The notes beneath the pieces were generated by a model. It was given only the letters and a program-made list of their open reading frames with translations. It ran no database searches and was not told the DNA's origin. The position numbers and the translations under genes were made by a program. A stretch of 61,992 nucleotides of DNA from Planctomycetota bacterium (GTDB lineage Bacteria > Planctomycetota > UBA1135): NCBI GenBank assembly GCA_049609225.1, contig JBMYYH010000003.1:1-61992 (forward strand), in the 5' to 3' direction. Below are positions 10,676-46,611 of the stretch, in pieces. The stretch's first letter is position 1; every line of letters starts with the position of its first letter.

Positions 10676-12349
10676 ATGTTGATGCCGCTCCTTCTGGTCG
10701 GCCTGCTCACGCAGCAGCCCGATGCCTCCGACCCCACGCCCGCCCCAACTCCCGGGTTGTTGCGTCCATTGGCGGTGGTCAATCTTCCGGCACCAGGCCA
10801 AACTGCGCGCAAGTTGATCGACGGACCGTTGGTGAAGCGCCTGCTTGCCTCGAATGTGCTCGAACAGGTCCTGCAGGAACATGCGCCGGGTGCGCGTTCC
10901 GCCGTAGAGACTGGATGGTTGATGTTCTTCAAGCCGTTGGCGGGCGATGTCGCACTTTTCGTGGATAGCTTTGCCGGGGATGGCCTGCGCTTGTTGTTGC
11001 TGGAGGGCGTGGTCACGGATGGAGTGATCGGAGAACCACGTTGGGCAGTCATCGCCGATGGCTTCGATGCCGAGATCGCGATGGATTGCTTGAGCCCGGC
11101 TTTGCAGATGGCAGGCGTTGCGCGGCAATCGATGCGTGGGGATACCTGGACTGCAACCGTCGCTGAGCTGCATCTGATGCGTCAGGGGGATCGCTTCTTG
11201 CTGACGCAGGATCCCGCCTTGTTGCAGGCCCTGGCTGAAATCGATTCGAGTGCTTGGCATCCCGCGCCCGACACGCACGCCTTTGCCTCCACTCCCCACG
11301 CCGACCTGCAGGCATGGATGTCCGGCGAACTCCTGCGCGCGGATGGTTATCCAGAGCTACCGGAAGATGCCGGCGAGTCCTATCTCACCGGCGGCATGCA
11401 CGAAGTTTTGCGCACCGCTGATTGGATCGGCGCACGCTTCACGGTTGACGGCCAGGAACTCCGCTTGGATTTCGCCGCGCCTGCCGATCCGCAGATTCGC
11501 AAGACCCACGCACCCTTCTTCCCGGCAGTGGAGGAAGTTGCCATGCCGCAACTCGAACGGCGCATGATGCAAGGCGTCTTCACCCGCGATCTTGCGCATT
11601 GGTGGGCAGCCCGCAGTGAATACATGAACGAGCGTGGCTTGGCCGCGACCATCGAAGGCGACAGCAACCTCGCACTCCTGTTCGGGCGCGATGCCGGCTC
11701 CGAGGTCTTCCATCACCTCGAAAATCAGATCCTGCTGCTCGCCGCACCGTTGCCGCCCTCCGAATCCGCCAACCTGAGCGTGGAATATCCCGCCGGTGCC
11801 ATCGGTCTGCAGTTCAAGGAAAGTGCACCCGAGGATCTCGGCCAAGCCTTCTCCAATGCCTTCTTCGCCGCCATCACTTTCGCCAACTTCGAAGGTGGGG
11901 CGATGGATCAAGCCGCCTTGCAGATGGACATCCTGCCGGTCGATGGCGGGCGCATCTACACCGCCACTTACCCAACTCTGGAAGAAGGACGTAAGGCATC
12001 CGCGCGGTACAATTTCTCACCCGCCATGTTGGTCCGTGACGACGGCGCCTTGTGGGTCTCGAGTTCGCTCGGACTGCTGCAGGAAATCGCCGCCGCACCG
12101 ACTCGAGCGGTCACCGCCCAAGGCATGTGGATGCACTTCGAATTTCCAGAGATGCTCGCACTTGCCCAACGCGATCGCCCGCTCCTCGTAGCCAATCGCG
12201 TACTCGAGGAAGGCGGAGATGTCGAACGCGCCGAGCGCTTCATCGATGTCATCCTTGATGGCGCAGCCGCCCTCGGCCAAGCCTCTGTCCACAGTTTCCT
12301 CGACGAAGACGTCTTCCGCCTGAACCTCGCGCTCGACTTTCTTGATTGA
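10676..12349 (+). CDS. Secreted hypothetical protein
   Basis: 557-aa ORF with a signal-like N-terminus; overlaps the next gene, so probably operonic. Confidence 0.75.
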   Translation: MLMPLLLVGLLTQQPDASDPTPAPTPGLLRPLAVVNLPAPGQTARKLIDGPLVKRLLASNVLEQVLQEHAPGARSAVETGWLMFFKPLAGDVALFVDSFAGDGLRLLLLEGVVTDGVIGEPRWAVIADGFDAEIAMDCLSPALQMAGVARQSMRGDTWTATVAELHLMRQGDRFLLTQDPALLQALAEIDSSAWHPAPDTHAFASTPHADLQAWMSGELLRADGYPELPEDAGESYLTGGMHEVLRTADWIGARFTVDGQELRLDFAAPADPQIRKTHAPFFPAVEEVAMPQLERRMMQGVFTRDLAHWWAARSEYMNERGLAATIEGDSNLALLFGRDAGSEVFHHLENQILLLAAPLPPSESANLSVEYPAGAIGLQFKESAPEDLGQAFSNAFFAAITFANFEGGAMDQAALQMDILPVDGGRIYTATYPTLEEGRKASARYNFSPAMLVRDDGALWVSSSLGLLQEIAAAPTRAVTAQGMWMHFEFPEMLALAQRDRPLLVANRVLEEGGDVERAERFIDVILDGAAALGQASVHSFLDEDVFRLNLALDFLD

Positions 12350-13685
12350 TCCCATCAGTGCCCTCGAATCCTACGACCCGACCTTAGGTCACGGTCCGTG
12401 GGGTGCGCGTCAGGCGGCTCACTTGTTGAACCGCGCGGTGGGGGGCGCCAAGCCAGGGCAAGTTCAACAATTCGTCGAAGCTGGACCATTGCAGTCCCTC
12501 GACATCCTGTTCGAGCCGGATCAGGAAGTCCTCGAAGCCGCATGGATGGGCATCGGCGATCCGTTGGCGGCGGCGAATGATCGCGGCAAGCTCGCGGCCT
12601 GGTGGTTGATGAAGATGGTCCAAGACGATCGCGTCACCGGCAGCCGCTTGGCCTTGTTTTGGCATCATCATTTCGCCACGACTTGGAGCAAGGTGCAGTC
12701 GAGCGAGTTGATGTACGCGCAGCATCTGACCTTCCTCGAGAAGGGTTCTGGCTCCTTCGGCGAACTGCTGCAGGCGATGATGCGCGATCCCGCCATGCTG
12801 CGCTTCCTCGACAACGACAGTAACCGTCGTGGCTTGCCGAACGAAAACCTCGCGCGCGAGTTGATGGAGTTGTTCTCCCTCGGCGTCGGCAACTACAGCG
12901 AGGTCGATGTGCAGGAGGCCGCGCGCGCGCTCACCGGTCGGTCGGTGCGCAAGGAGCGGTATCGTTTCGTCGAGCTGCACCATGATCCGGATCCAAAGAC
13001 GGTGCTGGACGAAGCCGTGATGGATGGCGATGACCTGGTCAACGTCGTGTTGAAGCAGGAGGTGTGTCCGAAGTTCCTGGCGCGGAAGTTTTGGGAGTTC
13101 TACGTCGGACCGCAGGTCGAGGAAGAAGTGCTGGAACTGTTGGCATCGCGATGGCGCGAGCAGGATCTGGATATCACTTGGTTGTTGCGCACCATGCTCG
13201 GCAGCCGCGCCTTCCACGACACCATCATGGTCCGCGCCGTAGTGAAATCACCGGTCGATCTGGTGGTCGGCACCATGCGATCCTTGGGCGGGCGTCCTGA
13301 TCCACATTCCCTCGAATTGGCCTGCGAAAAGATGGGGCAAGTGCTGTTCGAGCCTCCCGGCGTGCAAGGCTGGGCTGGTGGAGAGGCTTGGATCCACACT
13401 GCGGCATGGATTGAACGCACGCGGTTTGCGGCAGACGTCGCAGCAGGGCGTCATGACTATCTGCGCAAAGCACCACTCCAACAGTTGTTCCCCACCGCCC
13501 GACGCGTGGTGTTGGAGCACGGCATGGATGACATGCTCCAAGCCCTCATCCCCGGAGGCATCGCACCTTCCCGACGTCGTGCTTTGCTTGCTACCCTGGA
13601 TACCTTAGGCCGCACCCCCGATGCACGACTCTTCGAGGAGATGGCCTATGCCATTCTCTGCTTGCCGGAGTACCACCTGTCATGA
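12342..13685 (+). CDS. DUF1800 family protein
   Basis: AAHLLNRA, LFWHHHFAT, DPAMLRFLDN, PNENLARELMELFSLG, ARALTG, PPGVQGW, C-terminal PEYHL. Confidence 0.9.
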   Translation: MIDPISALESYDPTLGHGPWGARQAAHLLNRAVGGAKPGQVQQFVEAGPLQSLDILFEPDQEVLEAAWMGIGDPLAAANDRGKLAAWWLMKMVQDDRVTGSRLALFWHHHFATTWSKVQSSELMYAQHLTFLEKGSGSFGELLQAMMRDPAMLRFLDNDSNRRGLPNENLARELMELFSLGVGNYSEVDVQEAARALTGRSVRKERYRFVELHHDPDPKTVLDEAVMDGDDLVNVVLKQEVCPKFLARKFWEFYVGPQVEEEVLELLASRWREQDLDITWLLRTMLGSRAFHDTIMVRAVVKSPVDLVVGTMRSLGGRPDPHSLELACEKMGQVLFEPPGVQGWAGGEAWIHTAAWIERTRFAADVAAGRHDYLRKAPLQQLFPTARRVVLEHGMDDMLQALIPGGIAPSRRRALLATLDTLGRTPDARLFEEMAYAILCLPEYHLS

Positions 13686-34246: not shown

Positions 34247-35374
34247 ATGATGATCCTCTCACTCCTTTGTCTCGCGCCGATGCTGCAGCAAGCCAGTGAC
34301 TCGGTGCAGCGACAGCTGAACCTGCACGAGATTGCGGATTTGGTCGATCCAGCGGCCGGCCTGCAGGATATGTGGGCGCGCGAGTTGCTCTACACCACTT
34401 CCTTGTTGGCATTGACCGATGCCAACACCGAAAACTTAGACCCCACCGAAGCTGCGGTCCTGAGTTGGGTCGCCATGGGGCTTCAGCCTGATGAGGATCA
34501 AGAACCAGCGCGAGTCTCGGAGGATCTGCTGCTCACTCACGCGCTTACTAATTCCGCGGTTGCCTTCCTCGGCGCCGAAGCGCAACGCACGGTCTATCCT
34601 TTTGATGATCACGATCAACTGATTCAGGTCATCACCACTTTCATGGATCCGCCTTTCGAGAACAGCGGCGCGAGCTTGAAGGTGGAAGACAAGGGCGATG
34701 GGCCTATCCTCATCTCCTATCTCACCAAAGAACAGCAAGCGTGGCTGGAGCGATTCCTCGAGTACCAACGTGGCGAGATGGCTTGGCAAGGATTGGTGAG
34801 GGTCGAGGTCCTGCAGGGTGATTTGGATCGCCTGACCAGTATCGATCCAGAGATGCGTCTTTCCTTGATGGCGGATCCTGCGTTGCTGGAAGAACGTCGC
34901 GCCGCGCTCAAGAAGAGTGACTTCCAAATCCTCAACGATGCCAAGTTGTTGTTGAATCCATACCACGATGGGGAACTCCGCATTGCCGAGCAGATCAGCT
35001 ATGTCAGTGACTGGAGTCTTTACACCGTGCAACCGGGGGGCATGGAAGTTGCGGATCCCACCGTCGAGATGATGGAGGAGGGCCTGGAATTGGAATGCCG
35101 CATTTGGCAGGCCGAAGAGGGGAGTTATGGCATCCACCTCGACCTGAGTTATTCGGAGATCCAACAGCCCATCCCGACCCACGATCTCGCGGTCGAAGGC
35201 GCGCATGGCCTCAAGGAGTTCACCATCAGTGCTCCAGAACTTCGCTCCACCGATGTGGAAGCCGATGTCCGCGTGATGGATGGCACCGGCCTGCAACTCG
35301 TCGCCCAATCGCCAGATTCGAACCAAGACATCGTCCTGCTGATCAGCTTCCGCGCGATCTCCACCGAGGAGTGA
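34247..35374 (+). CDS. Secreted protein with a partial secretin-like C-terminal domain
   Basis: Signal peptide; EQISYVSDW...DPTVEMMEEGLELECR...IHLDL resembles the secretin beta-sheet pattern. Confidence 0.55.
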   Translation: MMILSLLCLAPMLQQASDSVQRQLNLHEIADLVDPAAGLQDMWARELLYTTSLLALTDANTENLDPTEAAVLSWVAMGLQPDEDQEPARVSEDLLLTHALTNSAVAFLGAEAQRTVYPFDDHDQLIQVITTFMDPPFENSGASLKVEDKGDGPILISYLTKEQQAWLERFLEYQRGEMAWQGLVRVEVLQGDLDRLTSIDPEMRLSLMADPALLEERRAALKKSDFQILNDAKLLLNPYHDGELRIAEQISYVSDWSLYTVQPGGMEVADPTVEMMEEGLELECRIWQAEEGSYGIHLDLSYSEIQQPIPTHDLAVEGAHGLKEFTISAPELRSTDVEADVRVMDGTGLQLVAQSPDSNQDIVLLISFRAISTEE

Positions 35375-35423
35375 GTCGATAACTCCCGTGCGAGGGTCGG
35401 CATGGTCGGAGTAGAATCTCCAT

Positions 35424-36545
35424 ATGCCGACCCTCCTGCATGATGCCGACGTCTTCGCCCCCGAAGCTCTCGGGCGCCGCGATCTCCTTCTTGGCGGAGG
35501 ACGCATCTTGGGCATTGGCGCGGTCGGGGCTCTCGACCAGAGCCTTCCCGCCGATGCGCCACTGGAGGTGGTGGATCTACAAGGCGCGCGTTTGATTCCC
35601 GGGCTGGTGGATATCCACGCCCACATCACCGGAGGTGGTGGTGAGGATGGCGCATCGACCAAAGTGCCGGCGCCGCTGTTCCAGTCGTATATGGATGCCG
35701 GCGTGACTTCGGTCGTCGGCCTCCTCGGCACCGATGATGTCACCCGGTCGACTGCCGAACTACTCGCCGGAGTGCGCAGTCTGCGCGAACAAGGAATGTC
35801 CGCCTGGTGTTGGACCGGCGGTTACCACCTGCCCGCAACCACTCTCACCGGCAGTGTGCGCGGCGACATCGTGCATTTGGATGCTGTCCTCGGCGCTGGA
35901 GAGATCGCCATTTCCGATCACCGTTCCAGTCAGCCAACGCTCGATGAGTTCCTGCGCGTGGCAAGTGATTGTCATGTCGGCGGCCTCATCGCACGCAAAG
36001 CGGGTGTCTTGCACTTGCACCTTGGCGACGGCTCCCGCGGCCTCGACTTGATCCGCCAAGCTCTCGATCAGAGCGAAGTCCCAGCACGCGTCTTCCAACC
36101 CACCCACGTCAATCGCCGCACCGCCCTGTTCGACGAAGCCATGGAGTTGACTCAACGCGGTTGTCACATCGACCTCACCGCCTTTCCGGTCGAGGATGGC
36201 GAAGATGCCCTCACCGCAGCCGATGGCTTCCGACGTTACTTCTCCGCCGGCCTGCCGCTCAACCAGATCAGCATCTCCAGTGATGGTGGCGGTTGTCTTC
36301 CGGTGTTCAATGAGAAGGGCGAGATGACTTCCTTCGACATCGGCACCAGCATTGCACTGTCGGAAACCCTCGCCGAGCTCGTTGCTGGCGGGATTCCGTT
36401 GGAACAGGCCCTGCCGGCCTTCACTTCCAACCCTGCGGATCACCTGCGCCTCCATGGCAAGGGCCACATCGCCGTAGGCGCCGACGCGGACCTCGTGCAG
36501 CTGGATGCGGAAGGTAAAGTGGCCAGAGTTTGGACTTGTCATTAG
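35424..36545 (+). CDS. iadA: Beta-aspartyl peptidase (isoaspartyl dipeptidase)
   Basis: PGLVDIHAHITGGGGE, GLLGTD, TGGY, GEIAISDHRSSQP, HLHLGD, PTHVNR, SSDGGG. Confidence 0.93.
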   Translation: MPTLLHDADVFAPEALGRRDLLLGGGRILGIGAVGALDQSLPADAPLEVVDLQGARLIPGLVDIHAHITGGGGEDGASTKVPAPLFQSYMDAGVTSVVGLLGTDDVTRSTAELLAGVRSLREQGMSAWCWTGGYHLPATTLTGSVRGDIVHLDAVLGAGEIAISDHRSSQPTLDEFLRVASDCHVGGLIARKAGVLHLHLGDGSRGLDLIRQALDQSEVPARVFQPTHVNRRTALFDEAMELTQRGCHIDLTAFPVEDGEDALTAADGFRRYFSAGLPLNQISISSDGGGCLPVFNEKGEMTSFDIGTSIALSETLAELVAGGIPLEQALPAFTSNPADHLRLHGKGHIAVGADADLVQLDAEGKVARVWTCH

Positions 36546-36585
36546 ATTCACTCGCCCAAGACGGCTGGTCCATTAAAGAGAAAAT

Positions 36586-37413
36586 ATGAAAAACCGAGGC
36601 TATAACCCTACCCGTCGAAATCGAAACATCGGTACTTCGAAGTCAGGGCATGGGCGTAACAATAAGATGAATATCCCTGACCCGTGGGTCGAGGAAGATC
36701 GGTACTACGAGCGATTGAAGAAAGCGATTTCACTCTCGCTGAAGGTGCATGGCAGGGAGGTACCGTTCTTAGTCGAGCCGCCAGCCGAAGACTTCTATTA
36801 CGCGGTGACCCCGGAAGAGATGGAAGTCGTCCTGAATCTCCTGCCGCCTAGGCACGTCGTGGATTTGGAGTACTTTGTCTTGCGTCAACAGAAGGCAAAG
36901 GAGCTTCTTTTTGAATCGAAGTGGGGATGTTTCCGCGTCTTCTCGACGACCGGGAAATATATGGGCCGGTCCATCCATCTCTGTTCTCAAAGAAAGGTTG
37001 ACGTGATCCCGTGGGCCAAGTCCTTGAGCAAGTGTAATGCGGAGGAGTTGAAGCGGCTTGAGGGCGATGGCCATAGGATTACGTCTGACGCAAGGAAATA
37101 TTACATTCATACTTCTCTAGACTCCAATCGGAATACACAGCTATTCAGGACTTTGCCCCATGAGGTGGGGCATCATGTCGATGCCATGGAGCAATATGAA
37201 TGGCCGGGGGAGGATGAGCACGAAGCTTGGGAACTTCTTTTCGACCGGTATTACTCCAGACCATCACGAGAAAGGGAAGACTACGCCCATCGTTATGCTG
37301 ATGAGTTCTTCAGGAGGCAAGTAGAGCTCAAGAACCTGCCGTTTCCTCGTATTATGAATCTAGAAAGATTCGAGGGTTTCGGTATTCGTCCGGAATGGTT
37401 TCAGACCTCATGA
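36586..37413 (+). CDS. Hypothetical protein with an HExxH motif (zincin-like)
   Basis: TLPHEVGHH followed by EDYA; visibly more AT-rich than the flanks. Confidence 0.75.
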   Translation: MKNRGYNPTRRNRNIGTSKSGHGRNNKMNIPDPWVEEDRYYERLKKAISLSLKVHGREVPFLVEPPAEDFYYAVTPEEMEVVLNLLPPRHVVDLEYFVLRQQKAKELLFESKWGCFRVFSTTGKYMGRSIHLCSQRKVDVIPWAKSLSKCNAEELKRLEGDGHRITSDARKYYIHTSLDSNRNTQLFRTLPHEVGHHVDAMEQYEWPGEDEHEAWELLFDRYYSRPSREREDYAHRYADEFFRRQVELKNLPFPRIMNLERFEGFGIRPEWFQTS

Positions 37414-38330
37414 GAAAAACCACCTTTATCGTCTTGGGGGCATGCCTCCTGCTGGGGTTTGGATGCGCTAAACCCAAACTTGAAATTGAATTTGCCGATG
37501 TCACGCTGCTAGAGCAATCTCTACCCGTGAACTTGAATGCTGAGGAGAACTTGGACCAAGATATAGCGAGGCTATTCAGCCTTCTTCATGATGAGTTTTT
37601 CGGTTATCTCGGACCAGATCCATGGCTTCATAACCATTACGTGGAAGGCACCGAGGCGGTGGATGAAGATTCGGATTACACGTGGATTGACGGGAAGCAA
37701 TGGCAAGACCTTTCTCCTGCTGTGCATTCCGCCTGGGAAGCAACCCTTCAATGGCACCAAAATTACAAGGTGACTCCAGAGCGAAGGATGATTGGTGGGT
37801 TCGAAGCCTTTGCATCAGCGTTAAGTTGGACCCATGAAGAAATAGAGTTGTTCCTGCAGGTGGCTGAGGACAAAGAGGAAGTGCTGATGGTCTTTGCGCA
37901 CTTCAACCAAGTCCAATGGGAGGAATGGAGTTTCCTGGGGGCCGATAGAGTGGTGTCAAATTTTTGGAAGTACCTTGATGATTCCCCATATTTCACAGAC
38001 GCCCAGCGAGACGCAGCCCGTTTGGCCTACCCGCTTGATAGAGAGGTCAGTCTGTTTCGAACTCGGCTGGCTCTCATCGAAGTCATCCGGTCCATTGAGA
38101 ATGGTGACCATGAAGACAATCCAGATGGCCTGTCCCGTCTCGAGCAGAAGCGAATCTCCGCAGAATCCAAACGGATCGTTGAGATTCTCGGAGGAGAGTA
38201 CCCCTTCTCGGATGCGGAGGTCCTTTATCTGCAATCCTCATTCCTCTTCCGCCGCGTTAATAATCACAGCTATTTCTTGCTGGAAGAAACCAATCTCCCC
38301 TGGGCCACCTCATCCGTATTTGAGGAATAG
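37410..38330 (+). CDS. Putative lipoprotein
   Basis: MRKTTFIVLGACLLLGFG-C lipobox; ATGA overlap with the previous gene. Confidence 0.75.
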   Translation: MRKTTFIVLGACLLLGFGCAKPKLEIEFADVTLLEQSLPVNLNAEENLDQDIARLFSLLHDEFFGYLGPDPWLHNHYVEGTEAVDEDSDYTWIDGKQWQDLSPAVHSAWEATLQWHQNYKVTPERRMIGGFEAFASALSWTHEEIELFLQVAEDKEEVLMVFAHFNQVQWEEWSFLGADRVVSNFWKYLDDSPYFTDAQRDAARLAYPLDREVSLFRTRLALIEVIRSIENGDHEDNPDGLSRLEQKRISAESKRIVEILGGEYPFSDAEVLYLQSSFLFRRVNNHSYFLLEETNLPWATSSVFEE

Positions 38331-38332
38331 CC

Positions 38333-38986
38333 ATGTCGATTCACTCCAGCCACGCCCTTCCGCTGCTGCTCCTCGCAGCCTGCCAGGCGCCAGAATCTCA
38401 AAGCGAGCAAGACACCCTTCACTATGCCCAATGGGAGTCCACCACCGATTACTTCGCACCCTTCCGCGCCAAGGTTTGGGAGCAGGGGCAGTGGGCGACG
38501 GGTACGGGATACCTTGGTGTCGATGAAGAAGGCGTCGGGCATCTCATTTTCCATCCGCGGGAGCTCCGGCTCGACGATTCCCTGTTGGAGATCGACAGTG
38601 AAATGGTGCGGATGGAGATCCAGTGGGAAGCCGATCGAGTCCTTCTGGGCCTGACCAACCAGCCAAACGGTAGCGGCATGACCTTGAGCTCCCTTTACTC
38701 CTCGGAAATGCCTGAGATAGAGGAAGGCGCTCACCCGATGTGGCCATGGAGGGTCTGGCCGTCTGATTTGGATGCGCTCCTGAGTTTCGACGCCACCAAT
38801 ACCGAGTGGCGCCTGACCCTTCCTCATGACGAGGGCGAGGAGATCCTCATTTTCGAGCAAGGTGGTCCCTGGGCCGAGCGTCCCGATGGGTCGATTCCGA
38901 TCTTCGCCGAACCGGAACCCGGCCGCTTCACGCGCGACGGCGTGGAACTTGTCGCACCCTACTGGAATATCCAGGTCAAGCACTAG
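38333..38986 (+). CDS. Putative lipoprotein
   Basis: LLLLAA-C lipobox; GAGG upstream. Confidence 0.7.
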   Translation: MSIHSSHALPLLLLAACQAPESQSEQDTLHYAQWESTTDYFAPFRAKVWEQGQWATGTGYLGVDEEGVGHLIFHPRELRLDDSLLEIDSEMVRMEIQWEADRVLLGLTNQPNGSGMTLSSLYSSEMPEIEEGAHPMWPWRVWPSDLDALLSFDATNTEWRLTLPHDEGEEILIFEQGGPWAERPDGSIPIFAEPEPGRFTRDGVELVAPYWNIQVKH

Positions 38987-39021
38987 CATTCCCAGGACCC
39001 TGGTAGAATCTCCACGAACCC

Positions 39022-39846
39022 ATGAGTCGTGGCTACCTCATCCCCATCGGTGGCGCGGAAGAGAAATTCCGTGATCCCGCCATCCTGAAACGATTTGCTG
39101 ACGTCTGCGGTGGCAGCGAAGCACGAATCGTCATCATTCCAACCGCCTCCCGTCTGGAGGAGACCGGCCCGCGTTATGTGGAGCTGTTCAAGGACTTCGG
39201 CGTCGCGCATGCGGTGAGCCTTCCGTTCGAGGAGCGCAGTGATTGCGCTCGCGAGGATTGGCTGAAGGAGCTGCAGGAAGCAACCGGTGTGTTCATCACC
39301 GGCGGCAATCAGTTGCGCTTGTCGACCACCATCGGCGGCACCGCCGTTGCGGACTTGTTGCGGCATCGCAACAACCATGAAGGCTTGACCGTCGGCGGCA
39401 CTTCCGCGGGCGCGTCGATCCTGAGTGAGCACATGATTGCTTATGGCGATGAAGGCGCTACTCCGCGTTGCGACATGGTGTCCCTCGCACCGGGCTTTGG
39501 ACTCACGCACGAGTTCATCGTCGACCAGCATTTCCAGCAGCGCGACCGCCTCGGACGTCTGCTCACTTCGCTGGCCTTCAATCCACGTCCGATCGGCATC
39601 GGCTTGGATGAAGACACCGCCGCATTCATCTCGCCGGAAGACGAACTGGAAGTCGTCGGCAGTGGTGCGATCACGGTGATTGACCCTTCGCAGATGGATT
39701 TCAGTTCCATGGATTCCGCCCGACGCCATGAACCGGTGAGCGTCATCGGGATTCGTCTGCACATTCTGACGGACGGCTGTACCTTCGACATTCCCTCGCG
39801 CGAAGCACGCCACCCTGCCGCCCAGCCTGCACAGCCCACCCCCTGA
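39022..39846 (+). CDS. cphB: Cyanophycinase
   Basis: IGGAEEK, IPTAS, TGGNQLRL, GTSAGA nucleophile, DQHFQQRDRLGRL, GLDEDT. Confidence 0.95.
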   Translation: MSRGYLIPIGGAEEKFRDPAILKRFADVCGGSEARIVIIPTASRLEETGPRYVELFKDFGVAHAVSLPFEERSDCAREDWLKELQEATGVFITGGNQLRLSTTIGGTAVADLLRHRNNHEGLTVGGTSAGASILSEHMIAYGDEGATPRCDMVSLAPGFGLTHEFIVDQHFQQRDRLGRLLTSLAFNPRPIGIGLDEDTAAFISPEDELEVVGSGAITVIDPSQMDFSSMDSARRHEPVSVIGIRLHILTDGCTFDIPSREARHPAAQPAQPTP

Positions 39847-39849
39847 CCG

Positions 39850-42648
39850 ATGAAGATCCTCGACCGCTCCGTTTACCTCGGGCCTAGCCTCTACGCCCAT
39901 TTCCCGGTCATTCGCATGACCATGGACCTCGAGGAGCTCGAGGATTGGCCGACCGCCAAGCTCGGGGATGGTTTCATCGACGCCCTGCTCGACGCCCTTC
40001 CTGGTCTAGCGGAACACGGTTGTAGTTATCGCGAAGCCGGCGGATTCGTCCGACGCATGCGCGAAGACGAAGGCACTTGGATGGGGCATGTGTTCGAGCA
40101 TGTCGCGATCGAACTGCAGAGCATGGCTGGCAGTCCGGTGTCCTTCGGCAAGACCCGCAGTAATGGCGAGTACGGTCAATACGATGTGGTCTTCCAGTAC
40201 GAGTCGGAAGAGGTCGGGCTTGAAGCCGCGTCCTTGAGCATGCGTCTGCTGCAGCATCTCCTTCCGGAGAACCTGCAGCCGGAGTCGATCCGCAACGAGG
40301 AGTTCGATTGGGAAGACGAGCGTGATTCCTTCATCCGCTTCGCCCAACGGCGCGCCCTCGGCCCGTCGACCGCATCCTTGGTGCGCGCCGCGGAAGAGCG
40401 CAACATCCCCTGGATTCGCCTCAACAAGTACAGCCTGGTGCAACTCGGGCATGCTTGTTATGGCAAACGCATCCAGGCGACGATCACTTCGGAGACGCGT
40501 CACATCGGCGTGGAAATAGCTTCCGATAAGGAGGAGACCAACAAGCTGCTCGCTGACCTCGGCCTGCCGGTCGCGAAGCAGGGGCTGGTCTATTCCGAAC
40601 GTTCGGCGGTGCGCACCGCCAAGCGCATCGGCTTCCCAGTCGTGATCAAACCGCTCAACGCCAATCATGGCCGCGGTGTTTCGATCAATCTGAAGACGGA
40701 TGAGGAAGTGCAGACTGCTTTCGAGAACGCGCGCCTGCATAGCCGTGCGGTCATCGTCGAGAGTTTCCTCAGCGGTTTCGATCACCGCCTATTGGTGGTG
40801 AATGGAACTTTGGTCGCCGCATCGAAGCGCGTGCCGGGTCACGTGGTCGGCGATGGCAAGAAGACCATCGAGGAGTTGATCGAAGTCGTGAACCAGGATC
40901 CACGTCGTGGTATCGGTCACGAGAAGGTCCTCACCAAGTTGGAGCTCGACTATCAGGCCAATCGCCTGCTCGAGCTCAAGGGCTTCACCAAGGATGACGT
41001 CCCGGAAGAGGGCAAGGTGGTTTACCTGCGCAGCACCGGCAACTTGTCCACCGGTGGTACCGCCGTCGATGTCACCGACCTGCTCCACCCCGACAACCGC
41101 TCCATGGCGGAACGCGCCGCGCGCGCCATCGGCCTGGATGTCTGCGGTGTCGACTTCCTCACCGACGACATCTCCGTCAGCTACAAGGTTGGTGGCGGTG
41201 GCATCTGCGAGGTCAATGCCGCACCTGGATTCCGCATGCACGTCGCGCCTTCCGAAGGCACGCCGCGTGATGTGGCTGGTCCGGTGATGGACATGCTGTT
41301 CCCGGAAGGGTCGCCGTCGCGCATTCCGATCTGCAGCATCACCGGTACCAACGGCAAGACCACCACCGCACGGATGGTGTCGCACATCTTCAAGATGACC
41401 GGCAAGGTGACCGGCCTCACCACCACGGATGGCGTCTACATCGATGGTCACCTCACGGTGAACGGCGACATGACCGGACCCGCGTCGGCGCGCATCGTCT
41501 TGCGCGACCCGAAAGTGGAAGTGGCAGTGCTGGAAACCGCACGTGGCGGTATGTTGCGTCGCGGTTTGGCTTATCGCAGCTGTGATGTCGGCGCGGTCTT
41601 GAATGTGCAGGCCGACCACCTCGGCTTGAAGGGAGTGGATACTCTCGAAGACCTGGCCAAGGTCAAGCGCATCGTCGCGGAGATCGCGAAGGATACGGCG
41701 GTCCTCAACGCGGATGATCCGCTGTGCTTGCAGATGGCCGACCACACGCGGTCGGAGCATCTTTGCTACGTGACCATGAACAGCTCGCACCCCTTGGTGC
41801 GCGATCACATCCGCGCTGGCGGACGTGCCATCGTGCTGGAGCAGGGTATGGGCGGCATGATGATCACCATCTACGACAAGGAGCAGCACATTCCTTTGTT
41901 GTGGGCGCACATGATTCCCGCCACCCTCGACGGACGCGCCTTGCACAACGTGCAGAATGCGATGTTCGCTGCAGGTATCGCCTTCAGCATGGGTGTGGAT
42001 CTTGAAGAGATCCGCCACGGCTTGCGCACCTTCGACACCAGCTTCTTCCAGGCGCCGGGCCGCATGAACATCTGCGATGACCACCCCTTCAAGGTCATCA
42101 TGGACTATGGCCACAACCCTGCCGCGGTGAAGGCCATGGTGGAGTTGAGCGTGCGTTTGGAGCCTAAGGGCAAGCGCATCTTGGTGCTGGCAGCGCCGGG
42201 CGATCGTCGGGATGAGGATGTGCGAGAGATCGCAAGCCTCTGCGCTGGCAAGTTCGATCACTACATCTGTCGTCGCGATGATGGATTGCGCGGGCGTGAG
42301 TCGGATGAGATTCCGATGATGCTGCGCGAACAGTTGATGGCCGATGGAGTGCCGTCGGATGCCATCGAGATGATTCCTGATGAAGAGGCAGCCGTCGACC
42401 ATGCCCTCAACATGGCGCGGAAGGATGACCAGGTGCTGATCTTCGTCGATGCGATCGGACGCAGTTGGCGTCAGATCCAGGAGTTTCAGTCGGATGAAGC
42501 CGATGCTTCCACCGAGGATGCGCATGCTCCACATACGGTGGATCTCGGCGCCTTCGGCAGCTTTCAGGACCTAGGTCTCGACAACGAAGTCGAACTGATC
42601 CGTGACGAACGTGGAGTCCGTATCGCCGCCAGCGAGGAAGCTGACTAG
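39850..42648 (+). CDS. cphA: Cyanophycin synthetase (CphA1 architecture: N, G and M domains)
   Basis: N domain HGCS...GGF...HVFEH; LGPST; ATP-grasp KPLNANHGRGV, NLSTGG, EVNAAPG; Mur-like TGTNGKTT, ETARGG, DHLG, PGR, DYGHN. Confidence 0.97.
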   Translation: MKILDRSVYLGPSLYAHFPVIRMTMDLEELEDWPTAKLGDGFIDALLDALPGLAEHGCSYREAGGFVRRMREDEGTWMGHVFEHVAIELQSMAGSPVSFGKTRSNGEYGQYDVVFQYESEEVGLEAASLSMRLLQHLLPENLQPESIRNEEFDWEDERDSFIRFAQRRALGPSTASLVRAAEERNIPWIRLNKYSLVQLGHACYGKRIQATITSETRHIGVEIASDKEETNKLLADLGLPVAKQGLVYSERSAVRTAKRIGFPVVIKPLNANHGRGVSINLKTDEEVQTAFENARLHSRAVIVESFLSGFDHRLLVVNGTLVAASKRVPGHVVGDGKKTIEELIEVVNQDPRRGIGHEKVLTKLELDYQANRLLELKGFTKDDVPEEGKVVYLRSTGNLSTGGTAVDVTDLLHPDNRSMAERAARAIGLDVCGVDFLTDDISVSYKVGGGGICEVNAAPGFRMHVAPSEGTPRDVAGPVMDMLFPEGSPSRIPICSITGTNGKTTTARMVSHIFKMTGKVTGLTTTDGVYIDGHLTVNGDMTGPASARIVLRDPKVEVAVLETARGGMLRRGLAYRSCDVGAVLNVQADHLGLKGVDTLEDLAKVKRIVAEIAKDTAVLNADDPLCLQMADHTRSEHLCYVTMNSSHPLVRDHIRAGGRAIVLEQGMGGMMITIYDKEQHIPLLWAHMIPATLDGRALHNVQNAMFAAGIAFSMGVDLEEIRHGLRTFDTSFFQAPGRMNICDDHPFKVIMDYGHNPAAVKAMVELSVRLEPKGKRILVLAAPGDRRDEDVREIASLCAGKFDHYICRRDDGLRGRESDEIPMMLREQLMADGVPSDAIEMIPDEEAAVDHALNMARKDDQVLIFVDAIGRSWRQIQEFQSDEADASTEDAHAPHTVDLGAFGSFQDLGLDNEVELIRDERGVRIAASEEAD

Positions 42649-42680
42649 TCCCCCGACCGGTCCGAGAGGAATCTAGCGAC

Positions 42681-44429
42681 ATGGAGCAGCCGACCCCAAA
42701 GCGTGAGATGCGCGATTCACGCCGTCTCACTGGACCGAACGTGATTTGGCATCAGCCAGGTCCAGTCATCGACATCGCCCTGGCAGAGGATGAGGCGGAA
42801 GCCGCACGTCTGGCATGGGAGGAGGCGGTGACTGCTTTGATGGAAGGCGTCGGATGGGGAGAGGAGAGTACGGCCTATCGCAAATTCCCCGGTGGTTTGA
42901 GCCTGGCATTTAGCGCACCCATGGATGCACTTTATGCAGCTTGTGAAATGAATGAATGGGCTTGGGCTGCAGCTGAGGCAAAGCTGGATGGCCAGCCAGC
43001 ACCGGATCTGACGGAAGCGATCGATCGCTTCAAGATGGAGATCCGCAAGGAATCAAACCGTCCGTTGTTGCGCCTCCAGAAGGCAGCGATGAAGCGTGGC
43101 GTCTTGTTCCTGACCGACGACGACGATGTCTCCGTCGGTGCTGGGCGTTACTCCGAATCCTGGCCGGTCAAGCGCCTGCCGGAAGCGGGGGAAGTGGATT
43201 GGGCTGCACGTCAGCGCATTCCAATCGCCATGATCACGGGCACCAACGGCAAGACCACCACGGTGCGCTTGTTGAAGGCCATGGTCGAGGCGCAGGGCAA
43301 GGTCCCCGGTCTCAGCTCCACCGATTGGTTGATGGTCGGCGACAAGATCCTCGACCGCGGCGATTGGGCGGGCCCGGGTGGCGCACGCAATATCCTGCGC
43401 AATCCTCATGTCGACATCGCTTTGCTCGAGACGGCACGCGGCGGCATGTTGCGGCGCGGACTTGGCCTTGCTGCAGGGGAGGCAGATGTCGCGCTGGTCA
43501 CCAACATCGCCGAGGATCATCTCGGAGAGTGGGGCATTCAGGATCTCGACATGTTGGCGGACACGAAGTTCATCATCCGCCACGCCGGCAAGCGCCTGGT
43601 GCTCAATGCCGACGACCCCAAGTCGGTCGAACGCAAGCACCTGGTCACCGTTCCGATCACTTGGTTCGGGCTCAATGCCCAAGACCCACTGATGCAGGAA
43701 CACCTCAACGCCGGTGGCCATGCCGCCATGCTCGATGATGATGCTCTGTGGTGGAGTGCCGAATGCCAAGCGCACAAGCTCCTTGCCGTCGACGAGATCC
43801 CCATCACCTTGGGTGGCGCGGCGCGTCACAACATCTCCAATTGCCTCGCTGCCATCTGCGTGGCCAAGTCGCTCGGTCTAGCCGAATCCTCGATTCGCGA
43901 CGGCCTGCGTAACTTCCAGAGCAATTCCGCCGACAACCCCGGCCGCCTGAACCTGTTCGACTTCGCCGGCCTGAAGGTACTGGTCGACTTCGCGCATAAT
44001 CCGCATGGCCTCGAAGCCCTGTTCGAAATGGCGCGTGCGATGCAGCCGAAGCGCAAGTTGGTTACCGTCGGACATGCCGGTGACCGCAGCGATGCATCCA
44101 TTCGCGAGGTGGCCATCACCGCGTGGGAGAGTGGGGTTGATCGCCTCATCATCAAGGAGCAGGATCAGCATCTGCGCGGCCGCGAAGCCGGCGTCATTCC
44201 GCAGATCATGCACGAAGCCTTGATCAATCACGGTACTCCCGAAGATGCCATCGGTCGTGCCGATAGCGAGCTGGAGGCCACCGTGCAGGCCCTGGAATGG
44301 GCCGAGCCTGGCGATCTCCTGCTGCTACTCACCTTGCAACAACGCAACGAAGTCCTGCAGTTGTTGGATGGCCTGCATGCCCGCGGCTGGCAATCAGGCC
44401 AAGCATTGCCGGACATCACCGTCCGCTAA
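42681..44429 (+). CDS. CphA-related Mur-ligase-domain protein lacking the ATP-grasp domain
   Basis: N-terminus resembles the CphA N domain; TGTNGKTT, ETARGGMLRRGL, EDHLG, LNADD, NPGR, DFAHN, GDR; no ATP-grasp motifs. Confidence 0.85.
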   Translation: MEQPTPKREMRDSRRLTGPNVIWHQPGPVIDIALAEDEAEAARLAWEEAVTALMEGVGWGEESTAYRKFPGGLSLAFSAPMDALYAACEMNEWAWAAAEAKLDGQPAPDLTEAIDRFKMEIRKESNRPLLRLQKAAMKRGVLFLTDDDDVSVGAGRYSESWPVKRLPEAGEVDWAARQRIPIAMITGTNGKTTTVRLLKAMVEAQGKVPGLSSTDWLMVGDKILDRGDWAGPGGARNILRNPHVDIALLETARGGMLRRGLGLAAGEADVALVTNIAEDHLGEWGIQDLDMLADTKFIIRHAGKRLVLNADDPKSVERKHLVTVPITWFGLNAQDPLMQEHLNAGGHAAMLDDDALWWSAECQAHKLLAVDEIPITLGGAARHNISNCLAAICVAKSLGLAESSIRDGLRNFQSNSADNPGRLNLFDFAGLKVLVDFAHNPHGLEALFEMARAMQPKRKLVTVGHAGDRSDASIREVAITAWESGVDRLIIKEQDQHLRGREAGVIPQIMHEALINHGTPEDAIGRADSELEATVQALEWAEPGDLLLLLTLQQRNEVLQLLDGLHARGWQSGQALPDITVR

Positions 44430-45961
44430 GGCGACTTCTCCAGGTCCCCCGGAATGCGAATCTGCTGATTCCATTGCTGCAGTGGCTGCGGAGTGACCCG
44501 ATATTCCTTCGGTTCAAACCCGCGTAGACTCAGGCGCACGACCAACTCCGTCATCGGAGTCTCGGCGGCATAGCGAAACGAATTCGTTTCCTCGTCGATG
44601 CGCGCGCGCGCACGACGGATGGGGTTGCGCCGGACATCTTCGGGCAAGGCCTGGCCTTCCGCCTGCGAGATTTCGATGCGCACTTCCTTGGCATGATGGC
44701 CGGCGGCCAACCATGCCGCATCGCACATTAAGGTGCCGCGAATCTCAAACGGCCGACTCTCCTCGACCACCGAAGTTCCGACATCCACCTGTGGCCCTTC
44801 GCGGTGGAGATCCACCTCAAGATCCGGCACCCACATCGCAGGATGCCCTTCTCCCAAGGCTTGTCCTGGCTTGAAGCGGGAGGTCAACGAGACTCTCACC
44901 GCCATCAACTCCAAACCCGACAAGCTGTAATAGCCCTCGCCATCCGTCCGCGTCGTGGCCAAGACGGAGTTGAAGTCATGGCCTTGAAGCCCTTCGCCCA
45001 CCGGCTCATTGGAATATGCCAGGATCAGCAACCCCGGGAATCCACGCCCGTCTTGATCGACGATGCGCCCATCGATCCTTCCGATTCCAGCGCCGACGAC
45101 CAGTTGCCCGAGATCATGCGGCTGCCCGCCCAGGACCAGCACATCCACTGGAGGGGGAGGATTCCACGACTTCCCTTTCGGCGTTTGATCCGTAGTCACC
45201 AAGACAGCAATCCGATAGTTGCCCGGGAAGACATCCCGAAACAAGAACTTCCCCTGTCCATCGGTGACCACGCGATCATCGATCTCGCCACCGTAGGAAT
45301 CCAAGCGCACCGCCTGCACGAATACTCCCGGTACGGATGCACCCAATGCATCCACCACCTGCCCTGAAAGCTGGGTGGCCATGCCCACCACGAGATCCAC
45401 CGTCTGTTCCTGATCCGGAATCACTTTGACGTAGTGAGGCGCCGGCAAGAAAACCCCAGTGCGATCGGACGGACCACTGTTCTCATGCACACCGCGCTGC
45501 TCCAACAACGGCGGCGCATATCCCTGCGGCAAGGATTCCGGATCCACCGCCAATCCGTATTGCCTGGGAGCCTCTAGTTCGAAGCGGAAGGTGCGGTCAT
45601 CGCCATGAAGGTCTTGCGCTTCCAGTTGCTGACCTTTGCGAGACACCAGCACCCGGCCATCCAAGACCTGTCGTCCATACGAATCGACGATACGCCCTTG
45701 AATCGTGCCGAACTGCGGTTCCTTCGATCCCTGCGGCGCAATCACTTCGGCCTCCATCGTTTCCGCCGGCTCTGCAACGACCTCCCGTTGCGCAACGACA
45801 TTCCTTGCTTCCAAGCCTGGCGCTGCCTGCACCGATGGTTCGGAAACGTGCACAGCGACGGAGGAATCCTCCGTCGCTGCATCTTCTTGACTCGAGAGTA
45901 GCCACCCGATTGCCAGCATTGCGAGCAGACCAAGGAAGAGGAAGGTGATTTTCGAGTTCAT
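44426..45961 (-). CDS. Membrane-anchored protein with carboxypeptidase-regulatory-like (beta-sandwich) repeats
   Basis: N-terminal TM helix; repeats IQGRIVD, LSGQVVD...TDGQGKF, IDGRIVD...TDGEGYY. Confidence 0.8.
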   Translation of the reverse strand: MNSKITFLFLGLLAMLAIGWLLSSQEDAATEDSSVAVHVSEPSVQAAPGLEARNVVAQREVVAEPAETMEAEVIAPQGSKEPQFGTIQGRIVDSYGRQVLDGRVLVSRKGQQLEAQDLHGDDRTFRFELEAPRQYGLAVDPESLPQGYAPPLLEQRGVHENSGPSDRTGVFLPAPHYVKVIPDQEQTVDLVVGMATQLSGQVVDALGASVPGVFVQAVRLDSYGGEIDDRVVTDGQGKFLFRDVFPGNYRIAVLVTTDQTPKGKSWNPPPPVDVLVLGGQPHDLGQLVVGAGIGRIDGRIVDQDGRGFPGLLILAYSNEPVGEGLQGHDFNSVLATTRTDGEGYYSLSGLELMAVRVSLTSRFKPGQALGEGHPAMWVPDLEVDLHREGPQVDVGTSVVEESRPFEIRGTLMCDAAWLAAGHHAKEVRIEISQAEGQALPEDVRRNPIRRARARIDEETNSFRYAAETPMTELVVRLSLRGFEPKEYRVTPQPLQQWNQQIRIPGDLEKSP

Positions 45962-45966
45962 AGTCT

Positions 45967-46611
45967 CTAGGCCAGGATCGCGAAGGCTGCGGTAAAGGCT
46001 TCTAGCAACGGGACGATCGATTCGATGCCATCCAATAGATGCGAGGCACCGTCTTCGCCATCCGAGCCATCTTCACCATCTGGGCCCCCTGGCATCCTAC
46101 CGCCATCGCCGCCCTTGCCTCCATCGCCACCATCTAGGAGGCCACTGCCGCCATCGCCGCCATCTCCACCGTGGCCGCCGCCTTCGACGCCATCACCACC
46201 ATCGCCTCCATCTCCGCCTTCATCGCCGAACATGAGATCATCATCGCCGGCACCGCCGTTGCCGCCATCACCACCGAAGCCGCCATTGGGGCCACTGTTG
46301 CCGCCGCGCCCCCCTTGGCCGCCATCTTCATCGCCGCCATCACCACCATCGCAGCCATCGCCGCCGCGGCCACCGTTGCCGTTGCCCCAACCATCTCCAC
46401 CGGGACCACCATTGGGAGGTGTACCCATGGGGGCGCCGGGAGTGCCGGGTGGGGTATCACCGGGCCAGCCGTCGTAGCCATCGGGGTGGAAGGGGTTGCC
46501 AGATGCGCCGAAGGGATAACCCGGCGGGTACTGGTCATAGGATTGGGCGGAAAGGCTCCCGCCTAAAAGGAGAAGCGCAACGAGCGCAAAAAGTAGAGGT
46601 TTCATCTGCAT
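45967..46611 (-). CDS. Secreted Gly/Asp-rich repeat protein
   Basis: SD AAGGA; signal peptide ending LSA-Q; many GGDGGxG repeats; hydrophobic C-terminal tail. Confidence 0.75.
   Translation of the reverse strand: MQMKPLLFALVALLLLGGSLSAQSYDQYPPGYPFGASGNPFHPDGYDGWPGDTPPGTPGAPMGTPPNGGPGGDGWGNGNGGRGGDGCDGGDGGDEDGGQGGRGGNSGPNGGFGGDGGNGGAGDDDLMFGDEGGDGGDGGDGVEGGGHGGDGGDGGSGLLDGGDGGKGGDGGRMPGGPDGEDGSDGEDGASHLLDGIESIVPLLEAFTAAFAILA

Follow-up and report, generated by a model that had tools for sequence, protein, structure and literature searches.

A CphA1-like protein without the ATP-grasp domain, encoded directly behind cphA1 in a planctomycetotal cyanophycin cluster, is a candidate second M-type ligase

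We analyzed a stretch of 61,992 nucleotides from a Planctomycetota bacterium (contig JBMYYH010000003.1 of assembly GCA_049609225.1; hereafter the window). The genome assembly comprises 3.1 Mb in 182 contigs and is 89.8% complete. The + strand of the window carries a complete cyanophycin cluster, arranged as iadA ... cphB-cphA1-P0002. The last gene encodes the subject of this study, P0002, a paralog of the cyanophycin synthetase CphA1 that lacks the ATP-grasp (G) domain found in CphA1 together with the N-terminal (N) and Mur ligase-type (M) domains. The features of the cluster, with their positions in the window, are as follows.

35424-36545, + strand: iadA, isoaspartyl (beta-aspartyl) dipeptidase, first gene of the cluster (TIGR01975, 359.7 bits against a cut-off of 331; Amidohydro Pfam matches)
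39022-39846, + strand: cphB-type cyanophycinase (TIGR02069, 254 bits against a cut-off of 126.6)
39850-42648, + strand: cphA1, full-length cyanophycin synthetase 1 with N, G and M domains, 932 residues (TIGR02068, 1158 bits against a cut-off of 850)
42592-42645, + strand: conserved C-terminal motif of CphA1, ELIRDERGVRIAASEEAD-COOH, ending in Asp (core D-x-R/K-G-V/I/L behind a variable linker)
42681-44429, + strand: P0002, G-less CphA paralog, open frame of 582 residues, last gene of the operon

The neighboring CphA1 matches the Pfam models Cyanophycin_syn, several ATP-grasp models and Mur_ligase_M/C. The open frame of P0002 starts 32 nucleotides past the cphA1 stop codon, and a GAGAGG box lies about 11 nucleotides 5' of its ATG. 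A consensus scan of positions 35000-46200 returned no promoter-like site and five terminator-like sites, fewer than in shuffled sequences; no promoter-like or terminator-like site was found between cphA1 and P0002. A look-up of read sets for the locus gave no RNA set and three DNA sets from a single seawater-metagenome study, one of which may be the source sample. P0002 closes the operon, because the next gene is convergent. This neighbor is an open reading frame (ORF) of 511 residues with a CarboxypepD_reg domain (44426-45961, - strand), and it overlaps the P0002 stop codon by 4 nucleotides.

Analysis of the P0002 sequence indicated that the protein is indeed a CphA paralog without the ATP-grasp domain, as the original prediction, made from the DNA letters and their translations, had proposed. 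Its Pfam content consists of Mur_ligase_M (PF08245, residues 185-395, 65.7 bits against a cut-off of 24) and Mur_ligase_C (PF02875, residues 421-549, 52.5 bits against 28.4). Both models match all 28 family members compared, which places the family in the Mur ligase superfamily, while ATP-grasp Pfam models match neither P0002 nor any of these 28 proteins. Residues 177-562 form a CphA1-type M domain, and BLASTP aligned residues 140-576 with residues 433-879 of the neighboring CphA at 37% identity (E 2e-74). The cyanophycin synthetase model TIGR02068 scored P0002 at 365.2 bits, below its cut-off of 850, with only model positions 476-858 matched. The murE model TIGR01085 gave 92.8 bits against a cut-off of 257.3, and the genome has a separate MurE scoring 384.6 bits. 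Among PDB sequences, five CphA1 sequences matched P0002 with E values of 8.5e-65 to 1.4e-57, and the best Mur-type chain was the plastid MurE-like protein 8w9z (E 7.7e-19).

The AlphaFold2 model of P0002 (predicted local distance difference test [pLDDT] 93.1, predicted template modeling score [pTM] 0.91) led to the same relatives, with all top Foldseek matches being CphA1 (template modeling [TM] score 0.80, query-normalized). VIA-align superposed 548 residues of the model (residues 8-568) on residues 1-872 of the CphA1 chain 7lgq_A, which has 868 residues, with a Z score of 35.6 and a root mean square deviation of 3.5. The Z scores against Mur ligases ranged from 22.6 to 27.2, the best being MurE 2wtz_D at 27.2. 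As far as a model can settle the matter, the N and M domains of P0002 superpose on CphA1 as a single unit from which the G domain has been excised. The resulting domain layout is as follows.

42681-43058, + strand: diverged CphA-type N domain, approximately residues 1-126, without the Cx19HxxEH site (invariant columns, superposition, hhalign register)
43059-43166, + strand: probable G-core remnant comprising the first helix and strands, approximately residues 127-162, boundary approximate (weak HMMER stretches, secondary structure)
43209-43925, + strand: M core, Mur ligase middle domain, approximately residues 177-415, with the P-loop G187-T193 and D279-H280 (PF08245; alignment to SuCphA1 486-855)
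43926-44381, + strand: M lid, Mur ligase C-terminal domain, approximately residues 416-567, with systematic differences from CphA1 (PF02875; column comparison)

The N-terminal region had been described as colinear with CphA1, a claim that stood in structure and not in sequence significance. BLASTP, phmmer and hmmsearch gave no significant N-terminal alignment, PF18921 matched 0 of the 28 family members at E<=1, and hhalign placed CphA1 residues 1-67 on paralog residues 8-74, in the predicted register, with a weak score (E 0.0027, probability 11%), whereas the predicted fold superposes from chain residue 1. In the ESM Atlas, taken as a lead only, the third match was a PF18921 cluster at 0.80. 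Judging from the model, the N domain of P0002 is so diverged that only its predicted fold reveals it. The domain is nevertheless under constraint, because it has its own set of family-invariant residues (R14, R15, L16, G18, P19, N20, W46, W59, R67, G72, P80, D82, L84, Y85, A87, N91, E92, A94 and E124), and by these alignment columns it is constrained for some other binding task.

In PMC9262961, a primer-cutting site Cx19HxxEH is reported for 83% of CphA1s, and the polymer-binding residues of SuCphA1 at the N site are given as C59, H79, E82 and H83 together with the M-domain residues S603 and E607. The neighboring CphA1 has this site as C58...H80xxE83H84, which is invariant in 23/23 aligned CphA1 N domains. 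Residues 1-176 of P0002 contain a single histidine (H24), so an HxxEH motif is impossible in its N domain, and the predicted absence of the C...HxxEH motif was thereby borne out. The polymer-binding residues listed for SuCphA1 are likewise not kept in P0002, where S603 and E607 align, by hand count, with F297 and H301.

Downstream of the N domain, a second match to CphA1 had been pointed out (AAMKRGVLFL...VGAGRYS vs AAEERNIPWI...LGHACYG). This segment corresponds to the first beta-alpha-beta unit of the G core, and P0002 seems to retain that unit as a short remnant. The segment LLRLQKAAMKRGVLFLTDDDDVSVGAG gave a weak HMMER alignment to the first G-core helix and strands of two solved CphA1s (CphA1 152-201), and the secondary structure of the P0002 model shows a helix at residues 127-138 and strands at 143-145, 149-152 and 159-162. 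Since this short remnant seems to be retained, the missing piece amounts to about 265-290 residues, in agreement with the roughly 280 skipped residues first estimated.

Database searches indicated that P0002 belongs to a sizable family. At least 120 full-length matches are listed, 49-100% identical to P0002 and 385-617 residues long, and all but two of them cover 90-100% of the query. The listed matches come from metagenome-assembled genomes (MAGs) of Planctomycetota, Myxococcota, Gemmatimonadota and Acidobacteriota, with Planctomycetota MAGs as the nearest named relatives, and the names among them include 'Mur ligase family protein', 'UDP-N-acetylmuramyl tripeptide synthase' and 'cyanophycin synthetase'. 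The N-terminal 175 residues, used as the query, matched 584 cluster representatives (50% identity) at E<=1e-3; the number fell to 339 at E<=1e-10 and to 29 at E<=1e-30. None of the 150 N-terminal matches listed exceeds 620 residues, and therefore none is a full-length CphA1. A search for longer proteins that carry the paralog N region, as a fusion would, gave none, although this negative carries little weight. The order sample described below contained four very long open frames that were considered as fusions; they proved to be stop-free upstream stretches and were ruled out. We define the G-less CphA paralog family by a length of about 550-620 residues, the N-terminal motifs D-S-R-R-L-T-G-P-N and P-x-D-x-L-Y-x-A-x-x-x-N-E, the M-domain motifs G-P-G-G-A-R and N-P-G-R, and a gene position directly downstream of a long CphA1. 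P0002 has all of these features, and its gene is real, intact and conserved. Cultured carriers of the window type are Luteimonas lutimaris JCM 16916 and Plesiocystis pacifica SIR-1, and those of a second clade are Kribbella and Terrabacter.

A tree of 108 M domains was built by a quick IQ-TREE search and rooted on the genome's MurE, which sits on a very long branch. A single clade (Shimodaira-Hasegawa-like approximate likelihood ratio test [SH-aLRT] support of 96) unites the 72 G-containing CphA1 rows and also takes in L015, a locus cut by a contig end, and L082, which has a broken ORF. The G-less proteins lie outside this clade, far nearer to it than to MurE, and fall into three groups: one of the window type, with 21 rows and a support of 90; a pair from Nannocystaceae (99); and a group of 10 rows from Actinomycetota/Chloroflexota (96). 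The branching order among the three groups is unresolved in the tree. Constraining the 33 G-less rows to stand together gave a likelihood slightly above that of the free search and was not rejected (approximately unbiased test, p-AU 0.614); the G domain may therefore have been lost once, at an early date. The partner CphA1s form clades of their own, with SH-aLRT values of 100 for the partners of the window type and 99 for those of the actinobacterial/Chloroflexota paralogs. The Plesiocystis protein resembles P0002 over its whole length, N motifs included, while the BLASTP similarity of the Chloroflexota protein to P0002 is confined to the M domain.

The M domain of P0002, which includes RIPIAMITGTNGKTTT, was examined by a column comparison of 21 window-type, 2 Nannocystaceae and 10 actinobacterial/Chloroflexota paralogs with 74 CphA1 M-domain rows. 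The comparison revealed that the GTNGKTT P-loop, E250, ETARGG, N275, D279-H280, K296, N309 and N387 are identical across all four groups, as are PGR, D436/H439/N440, GDR and RGR. P0002 D279 and H280 align with D585 and H586 of SuCphA1, whose mutation inactivates the M domain according to PMC9262961, and the P-loop lysine and Mg ligands reported for TeCphA1 (K499, T500, T522 and E558; PMC9427784) fall within the conserved motifs. Other columns set the paralogs apart from CphA1. The residue S546 of CphA1 (70/74 rows) is replaced by glycine, giving GPGGAR, in 21/21 window-type, 10/10 actinobacterial/Chloroflexota and 1/2 Nannocystaceae paralogs, and T/A735 is replaced by asparagine, giving NPGR, in 33/33 paralogs. 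The window-type paralogs further carry alanine in place of H512 and glutamate in place of L593. In the lid, the positions R787 (69/74 CphA1), D790 (70/74) and F802 (69/74) are variable in the paralogs, which also have an insertion of one or two residues before LRGR. Mur ligases bind the incoming amino acid through their C-terminal domain; by this analogy, the changed lid residues would fit a different substrate and are compatible with one.

The genomic distribution of the family was followed in three sets of genomes. The first consists of 80 loci listed from species-representative genomes, eight of which match P0002 from residue 12 or earlier. The paralog lies directly after cphA1 in five of these eight window-type loci (L004, L006, L009, L010 and L012) and about 2 kb downstream of cphA1 on the same strand in L005, while the contig of L008 is too short to judge. 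In L007, a Thermoanaerobaculia MAG, the paralog (11750-13561, - strand) is convergent with a fragmentary cphA, a 603-residue ORF with fragmentary G-domain matches that may reflect a broken cphA or an assembly problem. The second set is an evenly sampled collection of 401 genomes of the phylum, 40 of which matched at E<=1e-20. A window-type paralog is present in 24 of the 401 genomes, eight genomes have CphA1 only, two have a divergent copy without CphA1, and six have weak Mur-ligase matches only. CphA1 accompanies the paralog in each of the 24 genomes. The paralog is directly downstream on the same strand in 23 of them and on another contig than cphA1 in the remaining one (G365). The third set comprises 151 genomes of the Lysobacterales-type order that holds Luteimonas lutimaris, with 81 matched at E<=1e-30 and counted by eye. 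The paralog occurs in about 70 of these genomes, directly downstream of cphA1 in 61, on another contig in 6 and without a CphA1 match in 3; a further 11 genomes have CphA1 only, mostly as shorter open frames of about 820-860 residues.

The two divergent copies of the phylum sample (G018:C361:4333-5688, and L135 5866-7398 on the - strand, from G053) are 35-36% identical to P0002 over residues 9-480, and no CphA1 match was found in either genome. The G053 copy has 510 residues, adjoins a DDE transposase, shows a weak P-loop match to Mur_ligase_M and is probably decaying.

Comparison with known systems places P0002 beside CphA1 without making it one. CphA1 (TIGR02068; 7LG5, 7LGQ, 7LGJ, 7TXV, 7WAC/7WAE, 7LGM and 7LGN) shares with P0002 the 37% identical M domain with all catalytic motifs, the operon, and in the model the N-domain fold and its packing against the M core; P0002 differs in having no G domain apart from the short remnant, no Cx19HxxEH, a score below the family cut-off, an N domain that is unrecognizable by sequence (PF18921 in 0/28), and changes at S546G, T/A735N, R787, D790 and F802. 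MurE, MurC, MurD, MurF and FolC have the middle and C-terminal fold, the P-loop and the DH motifs in common with P0002, which however lacks their UDP-precursor-binding N-terminal domain and matches them with far lower sequence scores; the murE score of 92.8 bits and an N region that folds like the CphA1 N domain in the model place P0002 outside MurE. The original prediction was right that the Mur-ligase motifs are intact, with the ATP, Mg and catalytic motifs the same in the G-less groups and in CphA1. Two outcomes that it had named as speaking against it did not occur: the M domain groups with CphA and not with MurC-F or FolC, on which the PDB E values and the tree agree, and homologs are tightly linked to cph genes in the loci and in both samples. 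Its description of the protein as an M-only mirror image of CphA2 held in part: the M domain is kept and the G domain is lost, but the protein consists of N and M domains plus a G-core remnant. CphA2 is likewise a cut-down CphA paralog keeping one of two ligase activities, but CphA2, as described in PMC9427784, keeps its G domain active while the P-loop and lid of its M domain are gone. P0002 shows the reverse, with no G domain and with P-loop and lid present, and is not a CphA2. The betaproteobacterial tandem cphA pairs (L016, L022, L026, L034, L036, L041, L043, L044, L050 and L052) also have a second cphA-like gene, presumably the one called cphA', beside cphA. In these pairs, however, both ORFs contain an ATP-grasp G domain (about 634-778 residues upstream and 856-872 residues downstream), which makes them cphA duplications of another kind.

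Analysis of the partner CphA1s revealed a conserved C-terminal end. The CphA1s paired with window-type paralogs are long, about 930-1000 residues, and have a hypervariable linker of about 35-90 residues after the M lid, followed by the conserved motif. The core motif and a terminal Asp are present in 44/44 CphA1s from genomes with a window-type paralog, namely the window, 6/6 partner loci, 22/22 phylum-sample partners and 15/15 fetched order-sample partners. Of the phylum sample, 23 tails were fetched and G365 was left out because of a contig end; G146 has the variant DEKGVR. In an alignment of 22 tails, only D35, R37, G38 and V39 of the core are invariant, and the linker does not align. Among CphA1s of paralog-free genomes, the motif is found in 1/12: it is absent from 8/8 phylum-sample tails (7 genomes), G414 and L030, degenerate in L015, and intact in L042. 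Background rates were taken from two further sets. Of the other CphA1-like ORFs in the loci, 55 in number, two have a terminal Asp and one has the motif; among the 6807 open frames of at least 150 residues in the window genome, 296 end in Asp and one, CphA1, has the motif.

The second paralog clade is paired with a different end. The tail motif DPD[FLYIV] occurs in 7/8 partners of the actinobacterial/Chloroflexota paralogs (L017, L020, L024, L046, L056, L079, L080 and L083), in 0/55 others and in 0/7 window-type partners, and 0/8 of these actinobacterial/Chloroflexota partner tails end in Asp. Each paralog clade thus has its own conserved CphA1 peptide, and the pairing therefore points to a physical or functional coupling between tail and paralog. 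The intact case among the paralog-free genomes is L042 in G401, a genome of one 4.3-Mb chromosome whose CphA1 has a complete DERGVR...D tail. No paralog was found genome-wide in G401 at E<=1e-10, nor any remnant downstream of cphA1, so the tail is not strictly dependent on the paralog. Common descent could explain much of the tail-paralog association. The functions put forward in the original prediction (ligation of a different amino acid, hetero-oligomers with CphA, or beta-Asp dipeptides) are candidates; a different substrate would agree with the changed lid residues, and physical coupling with the conserved partner tail.

We propose that P0002 is an active CphA1 M-type ligase acting in trans with CphA1, and we give this reading a probability of roughly 0.55. 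The activity of P0002, the substrate that it ligates and its action on cyanophycin are what we infer. Under this proposal, P0002 would be cotranscribed as the last gene of the predicted iadA ... cphB-cphA1 operon, would bind ATP-Mg at its P-loop, and would phosphorylate an Asp carboxylate of a cyanophycin-type acceptor that the N domain and the M core hold between them. The likeliest target would be the side-chain carboxylate of a C-terminal Asp, the diverged N domain would hold the acceptor, and attack by the amino group of an amino acid would form an isopeptide bond. Because P0002 has no ATP-grasp domain, it cannot lengthen the backbone and would have to act in trans with the adjacent CphA1. 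Since the lid and the P-loop-proximal GPGGAR and NPGR motifs differ from those of CphA1, the nucleophile or the acceptor, that is, the incoming amino acid or the chain receiving it, probably differs from that of CphA1's own M domain.

Several observations weigh against this proposal. The window CphA1's own M domain looks intact, and the need for a second M-type ligase is not obvious. The argument for a changed specificity rests on alignment columns and on the analogy to Mur ligases. An in-frame stop is present in 2/24 paralog matches of the phylum sample (G324 and G023) and in 6 of about 70 in the order sample (G438, G506, G485, G517, G541 and G409), which would indicate that the gene is dispensable; these stops may be pseudogenes, sequencing errors or recoding. 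Three order-sample genomes with a paralog have no CphA1 match at E<=1e-30. Because related genomes are not independent, the counts should be read as describing linkage and not as a statistical test.

The conserved tail suggests another role, in which the paralog would dock on D-E-R-G-V-R and arginylate the terminal Asp of CphA1, producing a protein-bound primer or an autoinhibitory pseudo-substrate switch. We consider this unlikely, although a good deal speaks for it. The motif and terminal Asp are found in all 44 partner tails against low background rates, four core residues stay invariant behind a hypervariable linker, the second paralog clade pairs with a different motif (7/8 vs 0/55), and the tail is decayed in 2/3 related CphA1s from paralog-free genomes. 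With its alternating Arg and acidic residues and its free Asp end, the tail could be a tethered mimic of a chain end, and the M domain of CphA1 is described in PMC9427784 as requiring a C-terminal Asp without Arg. On the other hand, G401 keeps the full tail and terminal Asp without a paralog, tail and paralog may be co-inherited within one CphA1 subfamily with few independent contrasts, and none of the eight actinobacterial/Chloroflexota partner tails ends in Asp. RimK modifies the C-terminus of ribosomal protein S6, and glycogenin primes itself; both resemble this arrangement in that residues are added at a protein C-terminus or a polymer is primed on a protein, which is offered as an analogy and not as an argument from homology. 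Carried further, cyanophycin synthesis would be primed on CphA1 itself in the manner of glycogenin, with the paralog as the priming ligase that arginylates the tail Asp, CphA1 extending the protein-bound chain, and the N-domain peptidase later freeing it; we hold this extended version to be quite unlikely.

The intact machinery would also suit a small-molecule ligase that turns free Asp, or the dipeptides released by cyanophycinase, into beta-Asp-Xaa dipeptides or short oligomers, as primers or as a recycling intermediate and not as a modification of the polymer. Dipeptides would be at hand, because the operon encodes a cyanophycinase and an isoaspartyl dipeptidase, and the polymer-binding residues given for the CphA1 N site in PMC9262961 are not kept; the large, strongly conserved N domain in a CphA1-like position suggests a polymeric or peptide acceptor instead, and an extra supply of primers seems unnecessary because the partner CphA1s keep the primer-cutting site (23/23), so that we find this option improbable. 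We rate as improbable to the same degree a non-catalytic partner, a regulatory or scaffolding subunit joining CphA1 oligomers or granules. The tight linkage with CphA1 agrees with such a subunit, and the co-occurring tail could be its docking peptide, but every ATP, Mg and catalytic motif is invariant in the three G-less groups, which is unexpected for a pseudo-enzyme; CphA2, by contrast, lost P-loop and lid once its M domain was inactive (PMC9427784), and W672, the tryptophan that SuCphA1 requires for tetramers (PMC9262961), aligns by hand count with a non-conserved glutamine. An unrelated Mur-type ligase of the cell wall, folate or poly-gamma-glutamate kind that merely lies beside cphA, as the public labels 'Mur ligase family protein' and 'UDP-N-acetylmuramyl tripeptide synthase' would have it, is contradicted and very improbable: the cyanophycin synthetase model scores far above murE, the PDB matches to CphA1 far outrank those to Mur-type chains at 7.7e-19 or weaker, a separate MurE is encoded in the genome, the model shows a CphA-like N domain and not a UDP-binding one, and the linkage to cphA is conserved across phyla.

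Elsewhere in the cluster, the interval between iadA and cphB (36586-38986) looks like an insertion, because iadA lies directly 5' of cphB in the related loci L005, L006, L019 and L042. The interval has a G+C content of 0.528 compared with about 0.60 and holds three ORFs without a Pfam or NCBIfam match. The first has 275 residues and a HEVGHH (HExxH-like) motif, and the second and third, with 311 and 217 residues, have lipoprotein-like signal starts (LGFGC and LLAAC).

Full-text searches brought up neither an account of a G-less CphA paralog nor one of the tail motif, although subscription papers and supplementary tables, which lay outside their reach, may list such genes; the accessible parts of PMC9427784, PMC9262961 and PMC10206079 likewise make no mention of either. 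The family is apparently unstudied, and this analysis adds a comparison with CphA1 at the level of single residues, the frequencies in two samples, the test of the clades, and the partner tail motif, whose terminal Asp is invariant.

Many bacteria store nitrogen as cyanophycin, which is also in demand as a biopolymer, and the current view assigns its synthesis to one enzyme with three active sites. About three-quarters of the CphA1-bearing genomes in the phylum sample carry, directly behind cphA1, a second ligase that, by its motifs, is apparently active, and nearly half of the Lysobacterales-type sample has it as well. The conservation of this second ligase therefore indicates an unrecognized step, which may lie in regulation, in priming, in the finishing of the polymer or in the attachment of a different side chain. 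A paralog that installs another amino acid would be a ready tool for producing variant polymers, and one that acts on the CphA1 tail would change the view of how synthesis is initiated. The cultured carriers make the family directly testable.

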